Shown: positions 9,616-45,604 of the stretch, one piece after another
Layout: each line of letters begins with the position of its first letter
How positions within the stretch are numbered: position 1 is the stretch's first letter
IMG/VR virus record: IMGVR_UViG_3300029305_003710
Coordinates: 1-64,000 of that record
Reading direction: 5' to 3' (one strand)
Length of the DNA stretch: 64,000 nt
Origin: a virus
Taxonomy: Duplodnaviria; Caudoviricetes
Position numbers and translations under genes: made by a program
Notes under the pieces: generated by a model
Told to the model about the DNA's origin: nothing
The model's input: only the letters and a program-made list of their open reading frames with translations
Database searches by the model: none

Positions 9616-9933
9616 ATGAAGATTATTGATAATATTTTGGATAAATATTATAGCCGAAAACTTATCGAAATAACCTTGTCTCATATTCGTACACATTTTA
9701 GTCAAGCTGTTTCTATTAATTATGACAAAGTTCTTGGGGAGTGGACTTTAGACGTTCTTTTGGAAGGGGAGGAAGATTTTACTCTATCCTATATTGCGTT
9801 TCGTAGACAAAATGCAGTAATCGTTCTAAATCGTCTTTTAGCAACGGGCTGGACGAATCTTGATAAAGATTTTTTGAACAGAAAAAAACGAATCGAACGG
9901 GCCAAAAAGGAGGAGCATGCAGAGTTCATTTAA
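9616..9933 (+). CDS. Hypothetical protein
   Basis: TATAAT 6 nt before ATG. Confidence 0.65.
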   Translation: MKIIDNILDKYYSRKLIEITLSHIRTHFSQAVSINYDKVLGEWTLDVLLEGEEDFTLSYIAFRRQNAVIVLNRLLATGWTNLDKDFLNRKKRIERAKKEEHAEFI

Positions 9934-10585
9934 CGAAATGTATCATCACATTGAAGCTCCGACAATTAGCAAGCATTTGGGCATAAGAAAACGTGAACTT
10001 TATATCCCGACTCATCAGGATAATAAAATCGAATATTATAGTAAGCCTCTTTTTTGGTATCTTTCCACTCTTCAATGGCAGTATAAACGCAAACTTAACG
10101 GAGAGAATCTTCGGGTTAAGTGGGATGGCAACAGGGTAGTTTGGAATGGCAAAACAAACGCCTACCAAGCTTCAAAGAAGTTGACCAATTATATGAAAGA
10201 AACCTTTGTAGAAGAAATTTTCGAAGAAAGGTTCGGGCGGGATAAAACCGTGCTTTTGTTTGGTGAGCATATGGGGGAAAAGGTCCAAGGGAATGAGCTA
10301 GGGCTAGAAAAGCCAGAATTCGTTTTGTTCGATGTAAAAATTGGTGAATTTTGGCTTGAACCTGAGGATGTAGAAGAAGTCGCAAAATATTTTTGGCTTC
10401 GTACTTATAAGGATTTTGGAGATACAGGACAAGATACGCTTATAAATCTAATCTCTCGTACGGCTATTGGGGATTTTAAGGAATGGGAGAGAATTGTTGC
10501 TACTCCGAAGATAAGATGCTTACAGCCAAACGGAGAAAGAGTAATTTGCAAGATTAAAAATAAGGATTACGCAATCCATGGATAA
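9917..10585 (+). CDS. RNA ligase-like nucleotidyltransferase
   Basis: Motif I RKLNGENLR, LFGEHMG, FVLFDV, ERVICKIK. Confidence 0.8.
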   Translation: MQSSFNEMYHHIEAPTISKHLGIRKRELYIPTHQDNKIEYYSKPLFWYLSTLQWQYKRKLNGENLRVKWDGNRVVWNGKTNAYQASKKLTNYMKETFVEEIFEERFGRDKTVLLFGEHMGEKVQGNELGLEKPEFVLFDVKIGEFWLEPEDVEEVAKYFWLRTYKDFGDTGQDTLINLISRTAIGDFKEWERIVATPKIRCLQPNGERVICKIKNKDYAIHG

Positions 10586-11065: not shown

Positions 11066-11139
11066 GTGGGAATAGTTTAATGGAAAAACTACTGCCTCCA
11101 AAACAGTCGTTCTCTGTTCGATTCGGAGTTCCCACGCCA
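11066..11139 (+). tRNA. tRNA-Trp(CCA)
   Basis: Acceptor gtgggaa/ttcccac, loop ctccaaa, TTCGA, encoded CCA. Confidence 0.9.
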
Positions 11140-11144
11140 AACAC

Positions 11145-11231
11145 GCTAGTATAGGAAAGCGGTCAAATCCAACAGACTGTAAATCTGTCGCCCTCGGGCT
11201 TCGGTTGGTTCAAATCCACCTGCCAGCACCA
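11145..11231 (+). tRNA. tRNA-Tyr(GTA)
   Basis: acaga-ctgtaaa-tctgt, long variable arm, CCA. Confidence 0.9.
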
Positions 11232-11232
11232 T

Positions 11233-11307
11233 CTGGGGTTGGGAAAGCGGCAATCTGCCTCGCTTGGAACGAGGAGAAGGTCAGTTCGACTCTGACACCC
11301 CAGACCA
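11233..11307 (+). tRNA. tRNA-Pro(TGG)
   Basis: cctcg-cttggaa-cgagg, CCA. Confidence 0.92.
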
Positions 11308-11310
11308 GAA

Positions 11311-11395
11311 TCCAGAGTGACGGAATTGGTAAACGTAGTACCCTGTTAAGGTGCCGCCAATAGGTTTGTCGGTTCGAACCCGACCTCTGGAGCCA
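11311..11395 (+). tRNA. tRNA-Asn(GTT) with atypical 13-nt variable arm
   Basis: gtacc-ctgttaa-ggtgc; U1-A72, G73, CCA; 85 nt. Confidence 0.85.
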
Positions 11396-11398
11396 TAA

Positions 11399-11472
11399 GG
11401 CTGATTGAGGGAGCAGTTACCTACATCTCTGCAAAAGATGTTAGACTGGGGCAGCACCAGTATCAGCCTCCA
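11399..11472 (+). tRNA. tRNA-Cys(GCA) with non-canonical T loop
   Basis: catct-ctgcaaa-agatg; U73; T loop GGCAGCA. Confidence 0.8.
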
Positions 11473-11476
11473 AAAT

Positions 11477-11553
11477 GGTCATGTAGCTCAGTTCGGTAGA
11501 GCAGAGGCCTGAAGAGTCTTGTGTCGCTAGTTCAAATCTAGCCGTGACCACCA
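11477..11553 (+). tRNA. tRNA-Phe(GAA)
   Basis: gaggc-ctgaaga-gtctt, CCA. Confidence 0.92.
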
Positions 11554-11554
11554 A

Positions 11555-11631
11555 TGGAAAGTAGGCGAATTGGTAAAGCCACCACTCTCTGAAAGTGGAG
11601 TTTGAAGGTTCGAGACCTTCCTTTCCAACCA
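11555..11631 (+). tRNA. tRNA-Gln(CTG)
   Basis: ccact-ctctgaa-agtgg, U1-A72, CCA. Confidence 0.9.
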
Positions 11632-11639
11632 AGTAATTA

Positions 11640-11714
11640 GTGGGTTTCGTATAACGGCTAATATGCCATTCTTCCAAAGCGGAGATGGAGTTTCGACTAC
11701 TCTAACCCGCACCA
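11640..11714 (+). tRNA. tRNA-Gly(TCC)
   Basis: Loop cttccaa, imperfect anticodon stem, CCA. Confidence 0.8.
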
Positions 11715-11715
11715 T

Positions 11716-11792
11716 TTTCGGGTAGATGAATTGGTAGAATCACTCGGCTTTGACCCGAGAGTTTGGCGGTTCGAGTCCGCCCCCGAAAGCCA
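11716..11792 (+). tRNA. tRNA-Gln(TTG)
   Basis: ctcgg-ctttgac-ccgag, U1-A72, G73, CCA. Confidence 0.92.
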
Positions 11793-39359: not shown

Positions 39360-40061
39360 GTGCAAGACAGAAATCTTTTTAGTATTATCCATTGCGAGAA
39401 TAGCACTCCTGAAGCTAAGGCCTTAAAACCTAAAGGTCGTCCCAAACGGCAAAAGGGATTTATAACTCCTAAAAAGGGAATCTTTTATCTGTATTTTCTG
39501 AAATGCCAACATAGATGGGATTATGTTGGGGTAACAAAAAATTGGCGGGGGCGAATAAAAGAGCATATCAAAGGAGAAGGAGCGAAATTCACACGTCGTC
39601 ACTCCCCTATAAAGGTGATAGGGGTATGGAGACTTGGAGAACTCAATTATAGCGAAGCCGAGGAAATTGAGGACAATTTTACTCTAGAGATGATGGCGAA
39701 ACATAAAGGAAGGGTACGAGGCGGGCATTTTTTGGAAGAAAAATTAAAACCGGAAGAACTCCTTAAATGCTATGTCGTCCAAGAGGGGTGTATTGCCAAA
39801 TATGAACGAATAAATGTCCCGATGGATATGATTGGGAGTTGTCATTCTATCGCATCAAAACAAAAAACAAAAGCAAAGCGGGCAAAAATATCTAGACGTT
39901 GTAAAGATAAGCAGGTCGCAAAAATGCTAGGGTTAAAAGGAATGTCTTTTGATGAGGCGGTGGATACCCTATACGATTATTGGGTGTCGGAGGGGGAGTT
40001 GACAAAAACGAGAGATTGTGCCGAGAAAAAGATTTTACAAAAAGGATGGTATATCCCGTAA
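39360..40061 (+). CDS. GIY-YIG nuclease domain protein
   Basis: FYLYFLKC...YVGVTKNWRGRIKEH...GAKFTRRH...EEIE...VRGG. Confidence 0.88.
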   Translation: MQDRNLFSIIHCENSTPEAKALKPKGRPKRQKGFITPKKGIFYLYFLKCQHRWDYVGVTKNWRGRIKEHIKGEGAKFTRRHSPIKVIGVWRLGELNYSEAEEIEDNFTLEMMAKHKGRVRGGHFLEEKLKPEELLKCYVVQEGCIAKYERINVPMDMIGSCHSIASKQKTKAKRAKISRRCKDKQVAKMLGLKGMSFDEAVDTLYDYWVSEGELTKTRDCAEKKILQKGWYIP

Positions 40062-40913: not shown

Positions 40914-42281
40914 ATGAACTTCAAAAACAGAATTATCACTGCCCTTGGTGGCGTGCCTAAAGAGACCAACAGTGTCCGTGGCAACGACTTCCTTCGCTTT
41001 GGAGCTAGAGAACGGCTCGTCGATGACTGGAAGGAAGTCAAAATGGACGACGAAGATGTTTATAAAGGCTATCCGTATGCGGCAATACAAAAACGTGCAA
41101 ACAAAGTAGCAACCCTTGCAAGGGAAAATCTCTATACTTGGGCAAAACCCGAAGTGGTAGACGAATTCCAAAAACATGACCAAGACCCTCTTCACCCTTA
41201 TCTCAAATTAATTGAGGACTCGGAGGATTTCTCATTTAAACAGTTTTGGAAAACTATTTGTATTTATTTAGACTTAGCAGGTGCTTTTTATCTAGGCGCT
41301 GTTAGGAATGGTAGGTTCAGCAAAGACCCTAACTATCCAAGCATCTTTGGTGATATTACCAAATTTGTTCTACTTAACCCTTATGAAATCAAACGTGTTC
41401 TCGATTCCGATGGGAAGGTTGCGGGCTATTTAGAAACCAAAAAAGACGGCAGGCAACGTGAGTGGCCTACTCACATGATTATCGCTATGCGGGAGCTTAA
41501 TCCTTTTAACTGGGATAGGGTGTGGAGTATGACCGACGCCGCTAAAGAAGAAACTTATACCCTTAAACAATCGGGAAACTTTACTCGTGAGACCTTGAAT
41601 GGGAATCTTAATGCTCCTGGTATTCTTACTACTGACGTAATCCTAGAGGACAATCAGTTTGCTGATTTTGTATCTAGGGTTAAGAATCATACCAAAGGCG
41701 AACCTGTATTTGGCAACGGCACTGGGGCTATCAAATGGGAATCTATGCAACAAGACCTTGATAGAGCTGCTCTCATGGACATCAACGAAATTAATCGCAC
41801 AGCTCTATTCGCCGTATCAGGGACTTCTAAAACCGCTTTAGGGATTGAACAATCTGGCACTACTCGTGAGACTGCTAGAGTTCAGACCGAACAATTCATC
41901 TCCGACACCGTCCAACCTAGGCTAGAAGATATTATCGACTTCTTGAACCTAGATTACAAACGATTCTACGCTAGAGAATATAAAACTACCGGCTATTGGA
42001 TTGATATTAAATCCGCCGCGTCTCGTGATTACACTACGGAAACCCAAGCAACCCAAATGCGACAAGCACAATCGAGTCTGGCGTTTGAACTAATGCAAAA
42101 AGGCTATACTACACAATCCTCCTACGATTATGCGGAAGGCAAGATTGAACTTTCTGGCCTTGAGCTTGAAAAGGGTTGGATAAACCTCAAATCGCTGAGG
42201 AGTCTAGTATCCCTCCCAAAAATACCCCCTCAGACGCTCCAGAATCGCCTACAAGCGACGATAATGAAAAAGATGATATGA
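40914..42281 (+). CDS. Portal protein
   Basis: Portal-like architecture (YAAIQKRANKVA, YLDLAGAFY, LLNPYEI, NGNLNAPGIL, TVQPRLEDIIDFLN); first gene of head module. Confidence 0.88.
   Translation: MNFKNRIITALGGVPKETNSVRGNDFLRFGARERLVDDWKEVKMDDEDVYKGYPYAAIQKRANKVATLARENLYTWAKPEVVDEFQKHDQDPLHPYLKLIEDSEDFSFKQFWKTICIYLDLAGAFYLGAVRNGRFSKDPNYPSIFGDITKFVLLNPYEIKRVLDSDGKVAGYLETKKDGRQREWPTHMIIAMRELNPFNWDRVWSMTDAAKEETYTLKQSGNFTRETLNGNLNAPGILTTDVILEDNQFADFVSRVKNHTKGEPVFGNGTGAIKWESMQQDLDRAALMDINEINRTALFAVSGTSKTALGIEQSGTTRETARVQTEQFISDTVQPRLEDIIDFLNLDYKRFYAREYKTTGYWIDIKSAASRDYTTETQATQMRQAQSSLAFELMQKGYTTQSSYDYAEGKIELSGLELEKGWINLKSLRSLVSLPKIPPQTLQNRLQATIMKKMI
42170..42200 (+). promoter_or_regulatory. Putative -1 frameshift signal
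   Basis: A AAG GGT heptamer (42170-42176) then cctca/tgagg hairpin (42185-42200). Confidence 0.6.
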
Positions 42282-44458
42282 CTCCCATCTCGGAAGAAAA
42301 CTCGGCTAAAATAAGCCAAAATCAGGCACCAGAATCGCAGGGGTGGGTGGGGATTAAAACGAGCCCTATTGGAGTGAGAGAACGGCTCTCCGAGATTTTG
42401 AAAAAAGATTTATACAATGGGGATTTACAAGGAGAAACGAGCAACATTCCTGCTGAGGAGAATCCTCATTTTACGGCAGTTTACGGATTAACAGCCCAAG
42501 GCATGAAGGGGATAAGAGAATATCTAAATGAGAAAATCCAGACTCTTTCTAGTGTGAAAATTAAAAATATAGATGTTTTCGAACCGGATAGAGACTATAA
42601 AGTTATAGTCGCCCGTTTGGAAAAAACCGCTGATATTAGCAATCTACACCAAGAGCTTTTGGAAAGGGGGCATTACGACCAAGAGTTTCCAGAGTATAAA
42701 CCCCATATCACTTTATGCTATGTTAATAAAAACGCTAATGCTGATAAGTTTTTAGAGGCTTTTCGAGACCTGAAAGGGCAGACAATCAAAATTATCGGGT
42801 ATGATTTGTCATATCCAGAGGATACACAAGAAAATACTACCCTTATCTTTAGGGAAGGCTTAATCCCTCATCAAGAACTGCTAGAAAACTCAAAAAAAGC
42901 TGAAACCTCTGAAGAAGTAACTTTGGATTCCCGACTTCAGGAATCCAAACATAACCATCAAGAATGCGACTGTGGTAAAGTTGAAGTTTTGATAAACGAA
43001 CTTGGGGAAGACGGCAAAACTCTCGAAGAATCTTATAAAAAATTTCTAACTGATATTGAATCAGTTCAAAAGGAAACTTACAAAGCCTGCGTCTCGAAAC
43101 TTACAGTAAATGCTTTTACCGAAGAAGATATCATCGGGGAGCGTAAAAAACGCAACCTGACTAATAAGTTGAAGAGTATCATTCAAAACTACTGGTGGAT
43201 TCTCACTCCCTTGCTGGCTAACTCTCTGATGAAAGACCGAAACGAAGAATTTGGCGAGAACGTAAAGTTTGTTTTTACTAATGAACTCCAAAACAAGGTC
43301 GAAAATAATGCCTCAAGGGTTGCCGAGGGACACATGGAAACCATCTTGAACGATGTCCTCACGGCTTCCAACCGAGCCTACACCGAGATTACAGAACGAA
43401 AGGCTGCCGAACTGATTATCGAGGCTTACAAGGCCAATCAGCCTAAATATGTAAAGTATTTTGAAGAGCAACCAAGTATGACCGAGGCTCTACAAGCCAT
43501 CAGGAATACCGATATTTTGGACGAAAACCGCAAGATTTATGAACGAGCCAACGAACTCGCCATGCAAGGCTACAAGCGGGAAGATATTATCAAAGACATT
43601 CGAGCTAGGTATAATCAACTAAGCGAAAAACGAGCAGAAGTTATCGCAAGAAACGAAACCTCAAGGGCGTATTCTCATTCTCAATATGAGGCTGATACGC
43701 AATTCCTCAACTCAATTGGACAGCTAGACACGGCCTATAAGGAGCTTTACTCCCTCCGACCGGAGAACGAAAAGGACAAAATCTGCCCTATCTGTGAGGC
43801 GATTATCAACCAAGGGCCAATTCCCTTTACTCAGAACTTTGTCTCGTTAGGGGAAACAATCACAACGGAGCGGGACGGGAAAGTTTATAACTTTCTCTGC
43901 AACTACGAGAATATCGAGGGAGGGACAATTCATGTGAATTGCTTTTGTAGGTATAGACTAATCTTAAACGGAAAGACTTTGAATGAAGTACCTGATAATG
44001 GGCTTGATATTGATGGCCCTAATGATGGGAGGATTGATAATAATAGCTTTGATAGCGAAGCCAAAACATTGAACGACACCTACGACGCTACCGGACGCAA
44101 ACATGACGAAAAAGGCAGATTTACAGAGAAGATAGGGCAAGTTAAAGAGAAAGATGGGGCTTATCATGTCGTCACGGGGCACACAGAGGGAATGTTCCCG
44201 ATTGAAGAAACTCGTATCTTTGACGAGAAAAAAGACGCAGAAATATTTAGTGGTACTTTAAGGGCTGGGGCTAAATCTAAAACAGAAGCTTCAGTAGAAA
44301 TCAGAGGGAGAGGAAGAGAATATTGGATTTCCTATGAGTTTACTGATTCCGCTATACCAGAAACCGGAGAATATAAAACTTACTCCGAAGCTGCTTTGGC
44401 GAAAGAAGGGTTCGAACTTGGAAGACAACTATCTTTAAGGAGAGGACGTAAAAAGTGA
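42176..44458 (+). CDS. 2H phosphoesterase (Acb1-like) fused to MuF/head-morphogenesis domain
   Basis: PHFTAVY and YKPHITLCY (two HxT motifs); RAEVIARNETSRAY...CPIC...IHVNCFCRY. Confidence 0.85.
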   Translation: MDKPQIAEESSIPPKNTPSDAPESPTSDDNEKDDMTPISEENSAKISQNQAPESQGWVGIKTSPIGVRERLSEILKKDLYNGDLQGETSNIPAEENPHFTAVYGLTAQGMKGIREYLNEKIQTLSSVKIKNIDVFEPDRDYKVIVARLEKTADISNLHQELLERGHYDQEFPEYKPHITLCYVNKNANADKFLEAFRDLKGQTIKIIGYDLSYPEDTQENTTLIFREGLIPHQELLENSKKAETSEEVTLDSRLQESKHNHQECDCGKVEVLINELGEDGKTLEESYKKFLTDIESVQKETYKACVSKLTVNAFTEEDIIGERKKRNLTNKLKSIIQNYWWILTPLLANSLMKDRNEEFGENVKFVFTNELQNKVENNASRVAEGHMETILNDVLTASNRAYTEITERKAAELIIEAYKANQPKYVKYFEEQPSMTEALQAIRNTDILDENRKIYERANELAMQGYKREDIIKDIRARYNQLSEKRAEVIARNETSRAYSHSQYEADTQFLNSIGQLDTAYKELYSLRPENEKDKICPICEAIINQGPIPFTQNFVSLGETITTERDGKVYNFLCNYENIEGGTIHVNCFCRYRLILNGKTLNEVPDNGLDIDGPNDGRIDNNSFDSEAKTLNDTYDATGRKHDEKGRFTEKIGQVKEKDGAYHVVTGHTEGMFPIEETRIFDEKKDAEIFSGTLRAGAKSKTEASVEIRGRGREYWISYEFTDSAIPETGEYKTYSEAALAKEGFELGRQLSLRRGRKK

Positions 44459-44760
44459 ATATCTATTTGTATTCGATTTCCTGCGAAGGTTGTTCTGGCA
44501 ATCACGCCTTGAGCAAAATCCAACAAGCCTGCAAACAACAAGATGTAGATTTCCAAGAACGCCGAACTATCTTCTGGGACAGATGGGAGAAAGAAGCCGA
44601 TGAGATTATGAAACTCAACCCAGGGCTTGAACTTCCTTTCTACTACTTCGAGGAGACTGGAGACACTCTGCCTGGGTCGAGTCTCCTACTCCTAGACACT
44701 ATTGAACGCTGGGTTAAAAAGAACAAGGAGCTGTATGCCAGTCAGAAAAGTCAAACTTAA
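44455..44760 (+). CDS. Thioredoxin/glutaredoxin-like protein
   Basis: YLYSISCEGC, ELPFYY. Confidence 0.55.
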   Translation: MNIYLYSISCEGCSGNHALSKIQQACKQQDVDFQERRTIFWDRWEKEADEIMKLNPGLELPFYYFEETGDTLPGSSLLLLDTIERWVKKNKELYASQKSQT

Positions 44761-44872: not shown

Positions 44873-45604
44873 ATGAAAATCTCTAGACAAACTTATAATG
44901 AACTAAAAGAACGACTCAATAAGTTAGAAAAGCTCGTCAACGGCGGTGAGGGAAGTGGAAACTTCGGACACGCAGGGAGACCAGGGGAAAGAGGTGGTTC
45001 TGCTCCAGAAGGGAGTGGGGGAGATATAAAGACTAATCTCCGTGAGGGGTATGGAAGATTTTCGCAGGCTAAACTCGATGAGGATGATTTTTCGCTTCCT
45101 GCGAGAGAAGATAAGGGAAAGATATTAAGTAGAGTTGATGGGGAAGCAGTAAGGGATGTTATTTTCGTAAAAGCAGTAGCATCTCAATTAGGAGAACAAG
45201 AGTGGCGGGGAAAATTAGATGGCATTAAAGACCCGACGACAAAAGAGTATGCTGAGACACAAAGGCAATTAGCAAGAGATATGGTATTTGTTGCCGAGGC
45301 TATTTTGGATGGGGTCACTACAAGCGCGGGGATAGATTATTTGCAGGGAAGTCGTAAAGACGCGGACGCGAAGATGGCTCGATTGTCATTAGATATGAGG
45401 GGATATGATACGGCTTTAACGAAGTTAGGGGAGGCTGTTTATAAAGGAGCGAATGAGCAGCAGTCTAAAATGTTGCGAGAAAATGATAAAGTATTGCAAG
45501 CGTCTTACGATAAATTGGAAAAAGCTTATAGAAAATACACCGATGCGTCGGGGAATGCGGAAAAAGAAGTCGATATCTCTGACTTAATCAAACCCCGTAG
45601 ATAA
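44873..45604 (+). CDS. Head-associated protein with GGEGSGNFGHAGRPG motif
   Basis: NGGEGSGNFGHAGRPGERGGS, a motif I recall from MuF-associated phage proteins. Confidence 0.7.
   Translation: MKISRQTYNELKERLNKLEKLVNGGEGSGNFGHAGRPGERGGSAPEGSGGDIKTNLREGYGRFSQAKLDEDDFSLPAREDKGKILSRVDGEAVRDVIFVKAVASQLGEQEWRGKLDGIKDPTTKEYAETQRQLARDMVFVAEAILDGVTTSAGIDYLQGSRKDADAKMARLSLDMRGYDTALTKLGEAVYKGANEQQSKMLRENDKVLQASYDKLEKAYRKYTDASGNAEKEVDISDLIKPRR

Follow-up and report, generated by a model that had tools for sequence, protein, structure and literature searches.

The uncultured 84-kb phage represented by IMG/VR virus record IMGVR_UViG_3300029305_003710 carries an intact Acb1-like 2H phosphodiesterase domain placed between portal and MuF domains in one 1181-residue head protein. 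The window analyzed here is the first 64 kb of that 84,152-bp record, which CheckV rates as complete, and nearly all of the genes in the window lie on the + strand. We consider that capsid packaging is probably the purpose of placing a 2H domain in a portal-MuF protein, and we see about an even chance that the whole is best explained by a head-carried 2H cargo that hydrolyzes the nucleotide signals of host immune systems.

The portal-2H-MuF protein and its split gene

With its reading frame restored, the gene would encode a single chain of 1181 residues made up of a portal domain, an acidic linker, the 2H domain, a linker, a MuF domain, an HDEKGRF tag, and a small C-terminal module. The features of the gene are as follows, where P0212 is the corresponding protein from a second assembly and P0003 is a relative:

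40914..42176, + strand: portal domain, residues 1-421 of the 1181-residue fusion (Pfam Phage_portal, E 5.8e-16)
42168..42179, + strand: most likely site of a one-base deletion, GAAAAGGGTTGG, splitting the fusion gene (restored reading compared with P0212 and relatives)
42176..42337, + strand: acidic Pro/Ser-rich linker, residues 422-475, homologous to the linker of fused relatives (TPSDAPESP)
42338..42829, + strand: 2H phosphoesterase domain, residues 476-639 (Pfam; structural model; similarity to the penguinpox cGAMP phosphodiesterase)
42467-42475, + strand: catalytic HFT, the first HxT motif
42704-42712, + strand: catalytic HIT, the second HxT motif, inside EFPEYKPHITLCY
42830..42973, + strand: linker between 2H and MuF; homology with relatives that lack the 2H module resumes at REGLIPHQELL (42851)
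42974..43984, + strand: MuF-like head-morphogenesis domain, with a long helical part and the core RAxxIARNE ... CPIC ... HVNCFC (PHROG, motifs, and fold)
44102..44122, + strand: HDEKGRF motif, 57 residues past the MuF end (motif tally; the surrounding region is disordered in the model)
44123..44458, + strand: C-terminal module, 111 residues and the stop codon, shared only with P0003

As read in the record, the portal open reading frame (ORF) runs from 40914 to 42281 and overlaps the 2H-MuF frame, which follows as ORF 42176-44458. Stepping the frame back by one base at T42176 changes the reading from ELEKG followed by WINLK to ELEKG followed by LDKPQ, which is exactly the junction of the fused relatives. 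This junction is known from protein comparison, and the base missing from 42168-42179 could be A, G, or T. Exact-pattern scans of viral and metagenome contigs, a set that excludes records close to this genome, did not return the intact junction. An exact protein look-up returned P0212, a protein of 1181 residues on an 84,134-bp contig from another Joint Genome Institute (JGI) assembly of the same phage; portal residues 1-421 joined to the 760 residues from 42176 showed 0 mismatches to it. Because the 1181-residue reading is identical to a single ORF in the second assembly, we attribute the split most likely to a one-base deletion, either an assembly error or a very recent mutation, and not to two genes or a need for recoding. 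The P0212 sequence matched the Pfam families Phage_portal, 2_5_RNA_ligase2, Acb1, and Phage_Mu_F, placing portal, 2H, and MuF on one polypeptide among the head genes. The initial annotation, which had described a 2H-MuF protein at 42340-43980, must be corrected in this respect: the protein starts at neither 42278 nor 42340, and the part that had been recognized belongs to the C-terminal 760 residues of the portal fusion.

The relatives of the protein (63 found among 5.8 billion proteins) are almost all chains of 870-1260 residues that start with a portal domain. About 60 of them are in-frame portal-MuF fusions, and the shifted arrangement is conserved neither in these nor in the sibling assembly.

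Two other ways of reading the split were considered and rejected. An independent start at ATG 42278 has no Shine-Dalgarno sequence ahead of it, in contrast to the GGAGG-like element before most of this phage's genes, and the frame upstream of this ATG still codes for the conserved linker, so that the ATG is an internal Met. A programmed -1 ribosomal frameshift at A_AAG_GGT (42170-42176), setting the ratio of plain portal to portal-2H-MuF, would account for the position of the frame change exactly on a formal X_XXY_YYZ heptamer and for a -1 product, ELEKGLDKPQ, that matches the fused relatives. It is nevertheless contradicted by the identical 1181-residue protein encoded in a single frame in the second assembly of the same phage and by every other relative, all fused in frame; the heptamer is a by-product of Glu-Lys-Gly codons, and the 35-codon tail of the 0 frame has no homologue. 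We therefore regard a frameshift of this kind as exceedingly improbable.

Affinities of the 2H domain

The HFT and HIT motifs and the IDVF...VIVARL context on which the initial annotation had relied are all present in the + strand frame starting at 42176/42278, which also holds QGWVG at 42338 and reads IDVFEP...VIVARL. The catalytic tetrad is intact, and H519, T521, and H598 are invariant across 51 multidomain relatives. Taken in isolation, the domain scored above the cut-off of 27 bits with two Pfam models, 2_5_RNA_ligase2 (PF13563; 37.7 bits, E 2.7e-9) and Acb1 (PF23474; 31.9 bits, E 1.3e-7); the whole protein gave 28.7 bits on Acb1 and 34.2 on its clan member PF13563. PHROG 755, annotated as "RNA ligase," matched the domain at E 1.3e-12, and phmmer found 682 relatives of it at E<=1e-3.

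An AlphaFold model of the domain, built from 60 mostly stand-alone relatives, reached a mean predicted local distance difference test score (pLDDT) of 86.8 and a predicted template modeling score (pTM) of 0.82. The two HxT motifs and the duplicated beta-alpha fold, with Z scores of 9-14 to all solved 2H enzymes, place the domain within the 2H superfamily. Comparison of the model with known structures gave the following matches, with Foldseek E values and, for the first, a template modeling (TM) score, and with VIA-align Z scores and root-mean-square deviations (rmsd):

Penguinpox cyclic GMP-AMP (cGAMP) phosphodiesterase: Foldseek E 1e-8, TM 0.62; VIA-align Z 14.4, rmsd 2.6 A over 157 residues, 20% identity
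Plant CPDase: Foldseek E 6.6e-6; VIA-align Z 12.5, rmsd 4.3 A over 160 residues
Usb1: Foldseek E 4.4e-5; VIA-align Z 11.8, rmsd 3.7 A over 161 residues
FBB1 Acb1: Foldseek E 3.5e-4; VIA-align Z 11.2, rmsd 2.8 A over 130 of 137 residues
E. coli LigT: Foldseek E 1.6e-4; VIA-align Z 10.6, rmsd 4.4 A over 160 residues

The structural comparison that the initial annotation had proposed returned a 2H fold and a match to Acb1, with a viral cGAMP phosphodiesterase as the best match.

The Pfam scores were calibrated against a known member of each of the two candidate families:

T4 Acb1: Acb1 (PF23474) 202.7 bits; 2_5_RNA_ligase2 (PF13563) 13 bits; LigT_PEase (PF02834) not listed
This 2H domain: Acb1 (PF23474) 31.9 bits; 2_5_RNA_ligase2 (PF13563) 37.7 bits; LigT_PEase (PF02834) 17 bits
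E. coli ThpR: Acb1 (PF23474) no hit; 2_5_RNA_ligase2 (PF13563) 52.9 bits; LigT_PEase (PF02834) 79 bits

By this calibration the domain appears intermediate between Acb1 and ThpR, with a LigT_PEase score (13-17 bits) under the cut-off of 23.3. Since the domain is short and too divergent for a tree, profile-profile comparison was used instead, with profiles made from 15 T4-type Acb1 proteins and from 12 enterobacterial ThpR proteins, the latter being a shallow profile. In hhalign the clade profile matched the T4-type Acb1 profile at 97.4% (E 1.5e-11, 85 columns covering both catalytic motifs) and the ThpR/LigT profile at 5.1% (E 0.0076). The family profile aligned with T4 Acb1 itself over 52 columns at 89% probability, and pairwise BLAST with T4 Acb1 aligned only the FxxYxPHITLxY block (E 0.001). 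The resemblance to T4 Acb1 that had first been noticed is real but limited in extent; on the Pfam Acb1 model the domain has about 30 bits against 203. A grouping with the LigT-type RNA cyclic phosphodiesterases, which would have told against that resemblance, was not found when ThpR served as the comparison, and the clade is much nearer to Acb1 than to E. coli LigT, without being a close member of the Acb1 family.

In Acb1, the aromatic residues Y12, W74, F107, and W147 stack on the bases, E141 contacts the adenine, and there is a C-terminal lid (PMC9117128). Two of these four base-stacking aromatics correspond to conserved Phe residues in the clade: W74 aligns with the F in IDVFEP, which is near-invariant, and F107 with the F in EFPEYKPH. 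In our reading, the domain represents a phage 2H clade allied with Acb1 and the viral cGAMP phosphodiesterases, although it does not count as a T4-type Acb1.

Cassette behavior, the MuF region and neighboring genes

The 2H module is an optional cassette in the portal-MuF slot. It lies between portal and MuF in about 36 of the 63 relatives, with both HxT motifs in all carriers. In the five nearest relatives (61-82% identical) it is cleanly missing, and the flanks on either side are kept as SDAPESP...DD running directly into EGLIPHQELL. Six relatives (P0016, P0017, P0022, P0023, P0026, and P0028; residues about 500-720) have this slot filled by another insert, 175-225 residues long; in the three that were scanned (P0016, P0017, and P0028) this insert gave no Pfam match. 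Several relatives carry an ADP-ribosyltransferase at the C-terminus. Fifty-one multidomain proteins contain this 2H domain, 26 of them with a portal and 12 with a MuF domain detectable by Pfam; others have ADP-ribosyltransferase, InPase, NUDIX, GNAT, or Tad6 domains. The Tad6 domain (a type I Thoeris inhibitor; E 5.7e-20) is found in one large protein among these carriers, and its union with a 2H domain on one chain would be an anti-defense pairing. The gene provides a clean natural presence/absence comparison, with close relatives that have or lack the cassette in the same slot, as well as a confident domain model for expression tests.

The MuF domain that had been proposed to follow the 2H domain is borne out by its predicted fold and by the order of its motifs, though its Pfam score (Phage_Mu_F, PF04233) of 21.7 bits is below the 29.6 cut-off. 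Several head-morphogenesis families matched the region in the PHROG search. Its hallmarks are ARNE at 43646-43657, CPIC at 43784-43795, and HVNCFC at 43931-43948, an order that parallels ARTE ... CNCRC in SPP1 gp7. A model of 42950-44197 (pLDDT 78.9) was ordered over residues 9-345, and both the start of this model and the end of the 2H model, which flank the 42830..42973 linker, had low pLDDT. When the MuF model was compared with BFVD, head-morphogenesis or minor-capsid proteins made up nearly all of the top 50 matches (best E 2.9e-6), and we take this fold match as confirming a divergent MuF domain. Comparison of the family with SPP1 gp7 by hhalign gave a probability of 4.8%, with only the RAxxIARxE core aligned. 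When VIA-align was run with this model across the whole PDB, the matches listed were generic helical bundles (TetR and others, Z<10) with no MuF-like entry among them, and we regard that result as uninformative.

The HDEKGRF motif is present at 44102-44122, just outside the end (43980) that the initial annotation had given to the protein. Relatives show GSGNFGHxGRPGEVGGS or NPYHDxLGRF here, preceding the cargo at their C-termini, and the GHxGRPG form also precedes the alternative portal-MuF insert in four relatives (P0016, P0017, P0023, and P0028). No paper containing the junction motif strings turned up in a full-text literature search. The C-terminal module beyond the motif gave no Pfam or PHROG match, and the C-terminal 127 residues gave no lead in the ESM Atlas.

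Two small genes follow. A 101-residue ORF at 44455-44760, with a GTG start and a CEGC motif, overlaps the fusion stop and keeps its position in the sibling contig; it matched no family. Two genes downstream of the fusion, a 243-residue ORF (44873-45604) begins with a short helix and then NGGEGSGNFGHAGRPGERGGS (motif at about 44951-45001), the GHxGRPG-type peptide that in relatives stands before cargo modules both downstream of MuF and in the portal-MuF slot. This ORF matched no Pfam or PHROG family and may specify another head-internal protein marked by the tag.

On the other side, a GIY-YIG endonuclease ORF (39360-40061; PF01541, E 5.8e-8) lies between a NinG-like gene and the portal, and in the relative L002 an HNH/NUMOD4 endonuclease is instead found directly after the portal-MuF gene. 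The head module thus seems to be a region within which homing endonucleases change position. Eight tRNA genes are clustered at 11066-11792. Outside the window, on the minus strand, there is an RNA-repair-like block (G000:C1:76196-79567, locus L005), which includes a protein of 517 residues whose N-terminal part consists of NUMOD4/HNH homing-endonuclease domains and is linked to an RNA ligase domain of the Rnl1 type. Megablast and tblastn searches of 50,697 deposited phage records returned no match for the region, the whole protein, or the MuF part, and judged by these searches the phage is without a sequenced cultured relative among those records. A search of IMG/VR for related loci, run with this one protein, yielded a single locus.

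Proposed role, alternatives and known systems

Under the explanation that we favor, a 2H cargo carried in the head and directed against host immune nucleotides, the module would be made late, together with the head proteins. Because the C-terminal extension of the portal and the MuF domain lie inside the capsid, the 2H domain would be carried inside the virion, in up to 12 copies if each portal subunit keeps it. The predicted substrates are the cyclic di- and trinucleotides of systems of the cyclic-oligonucleotide-based anti-phage signaling (CBASS) type, and the chemistry would be metal-independent His-Thr acid-base catalysis by way of a 2',3'-cyclic phosphate, as in Acb1 and the poxvirus cGAMP phosphodiesterase. 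The enzyme could act in the next host after release, or already in the producing cell. A more elaborate version of this proposal treats the portal-MuF chain as a loader with two cargo slots, in which the tag heading a cargo module is cut in the capsid and the phosphodiesterase enters with the DNA, destroying immune nucleotides before any expression of phage genes, with a substrate range that could differ from that of T4 Acb1; we consider this version quite unlikely. If the loader existed, it would represent the first demonstrated virion-delivered signal-degrading enzyme, together with an undescribed cargo-processing signal. More generally, if the favored role is right, a pre-made capsid enzyme could disarm CBASS-type cyclic-nucleotide immunity without waiting for early gene expression, which would alter how the timing of defense and counter-defense is understood.

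Several observations weigh against a head-carried, signal-degrading enzyme. The portal normally stays in the capsid, and an enzyme tethered to it leaves only if it is cut; since the 2H domain is joined to the portal as well, it would have to be cleaved off before it could be released. Pfam and PHROG scans of the neighboring head genes revealed no prohead protease and no recognizable major capsid protein, and no proven cleavage site was found. For the whole class of 2H-portal/MuF proteins, activity, packaging, and cleavage are predicted properties. The match to the Acb1 Pfam model is marginal (28.7-31.9 bits against the cut-off of 27, compared with 202.7 for T4 Acb1), and the generic 2_5_RNA_ligase2 model outscores it on this domain. 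In a search of PDB sequences with the clade profile, the archaeal LigT-like protein PH0099 (E 4.9e-7) tied with BCSR5 Acb1 (E 5.3e-7). The nearest proteins in BFVD are 170-200 residues long, come from phages and bear the annotation phosphoesterase or 2'-5' RNA ligase, along with large actinophage head proteins, and proteins annotated as Acb1 appear there only from rank 25 down. Acb1 residues Y12, E141, and W147 and the C-terminal lid fall outside the aligned core of the sequence profiles. Finally, the phage encodes RNA ligase-like proteins.

The last point bears on the possibility of RNA-end healing, in which the 2H domain would be a LigT-type 2',3'-cyclic phosphodiesterase that opens the ends of tRNAs or mRNAs cut by ribotoxins, phage ligases would reseal them, and carriage in the head would make the enzyme available early. 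An RNA_ligase ORF (9917-10585, 222 residues; PF09414, 28.9 bits) sits immediately upstream of the eight-tRNA cluster, and the Rnl1-like ligase of the RNA-repair-like block (PF09511, 30.3 bits) adjoins a metallophosphoesterase and a DUF2828 protein. The top Pfam match being a generic 2H/LigT-superfamily model, the PHROG 755 "RNA ligase" match, and the tie between PH0099 and Acb1 are all compatible with such a role. The subthreshold LigT_PEase score and the hhalign value of just 5% with ThpR/LigT argue otherwise. The RNA-repair block, which lies on the opposite strand at a distance of more than 30 kb, comes with a phosphoesterase of its own; the closest relatives dispense with the cassette; and the 2H domains of polyvalent proteins are not associated with RNA ligases (Iyer et al. 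2017, PMC5512222). On balance we judge RNA-end healing to be unlikely. We think it very unlikely that the domain is instead an offensive enzyme, such as a Usb1-like 3'-5' exoribonuclease or a 2'-5' oligonucleotide-degrading effector acting on host RNA or other nucleotides. Usb1 and plant CPDase do rank among the stronger structural matches (Z 11-12.5), and Iyer et al. (2017, PMC5512222) raised this alternative for 2H domains fused to MuF or portal. These two enzymes nevertheless superpose less closely (rmsd 3.4-4.3 A, 7-14% identity) than the viral cGAMP phosphodiesterase and Acb1 do (2.6-2.8 A, 19-20%), and the sequence profile did not retrieve Usb1 from the PDB sequences.

Of a different kind is the proposal that the enzyme does degrade immune signals but acts only in the producing cell, being made late and working in the cytoplasm before assembly, so that its presence in the capsid would be a by-product that involves no delivery. 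The tethering of the 2H domain to a portal that is not ejected, the failure of the scans of neighboring head genes to identify a protease or cleavage site, and the expression with late head genes that the gene order implies count in favor of this proposal, and structural proteins made at the same time are triggers of CBASS-type systems. Yet MuF proteins such as SPP1 gp7 exit the capsid along with the DNA, as is well established; in relatives, Alt-like ADP-ribosyltransferases, a classic kind of injected enzyme, are found in these slots; and the conserved tag ahead of cargo modules suggests processing. We regard a late cytoplasmic role as a fair alternative to delivery, although a role confined to the producing cell seems doubtful, and we continue to favor the head-carried cargo.

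Among known systems, Acb1 (T4 gene 57B; Erwinia phage FBB1, PDB 7T26/7T27; Burkholderia phage BCSR5, 9Q2G/9Q2Y) shares with this domain the 2H fold, the HxT/HxT tetrad, the HxTxxY form of both motifs, and the F/YPxYxPHITLxY block. Identity is only 18-19%, however, and whereas Acb1 is a free early protein of ~150 residues, the domain described here is ~20-30 residues longer and embedded in a structural protein of 1181 residues. The best structural match, the avian poxvirus cGAMP phosphodiesterase (penguinpox, PDB 9BKQ/9CIW), is a viral LigT-like phosphodiesterase for which destruction of a cyclic dinucleotide of immune signaling has been demonstrated (Nomburg et al. 2024, PMC11410667); it differs in being a free protein of a eukaryotic virus, and its sequence similarity is marginal (profile E 4e-4). 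The LigT/ThpR RNA 2',3'-cyclic phosphodiesterases (E. coli ThpR, 5LDI; P. horikoshii PH0099, 1VDX) belong to the same superfamily and have the same catalytic motifs, but in the form HxTLxF...HxTLxR, in contrast to the HxTxxY of this clade and Acb1. The MuF part resembles SPP1 gp7, the MuF polymorphic toxins, and the "portal and MuF-like fusion proteins" of actinobacteriophages in its place directly after the portal (here fused), in its RAxxIAR(T/N)E ... CxxC ... HxNCxC core, and in its association with cargo domains, and is distinguished by its score under the Pfam cut-off and by having cargo on both the N-terminal and the C-terminal side of MuF.

One virion ejection protein is reported to block CBASS through a different mechanism (bioRxiv 10.1101/2025.07.23.666291). 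Closest to the present case are the 2H domains fused to MuF or portal in phage head and "polyvalent" proteins, for which packaging and injection against nucleotide-based immunity have been proposed (Iyer, Burroughs, Anand, de Souza, Aravind 2017, PMC5512222; Iyer et al. 2022, PMC9503650). Both the architecture and the hypothesis were therefore already published in 2017/2022, and the gene adds no new concept. The class and the protein described here have in common the architecture, the head-gene context, the alternative cargo at equivalent positions (ADP-ribosyltransferase, InPase, NUDIX, and GNAT), and the predicted role, and nothing essential differs: the peculiarities of this protein are a very divergent MuF domain, a cassette placed between portal and MuF, and a gene split by a deletion in the record, and we conclude that it is a good but ordinary example of that class.

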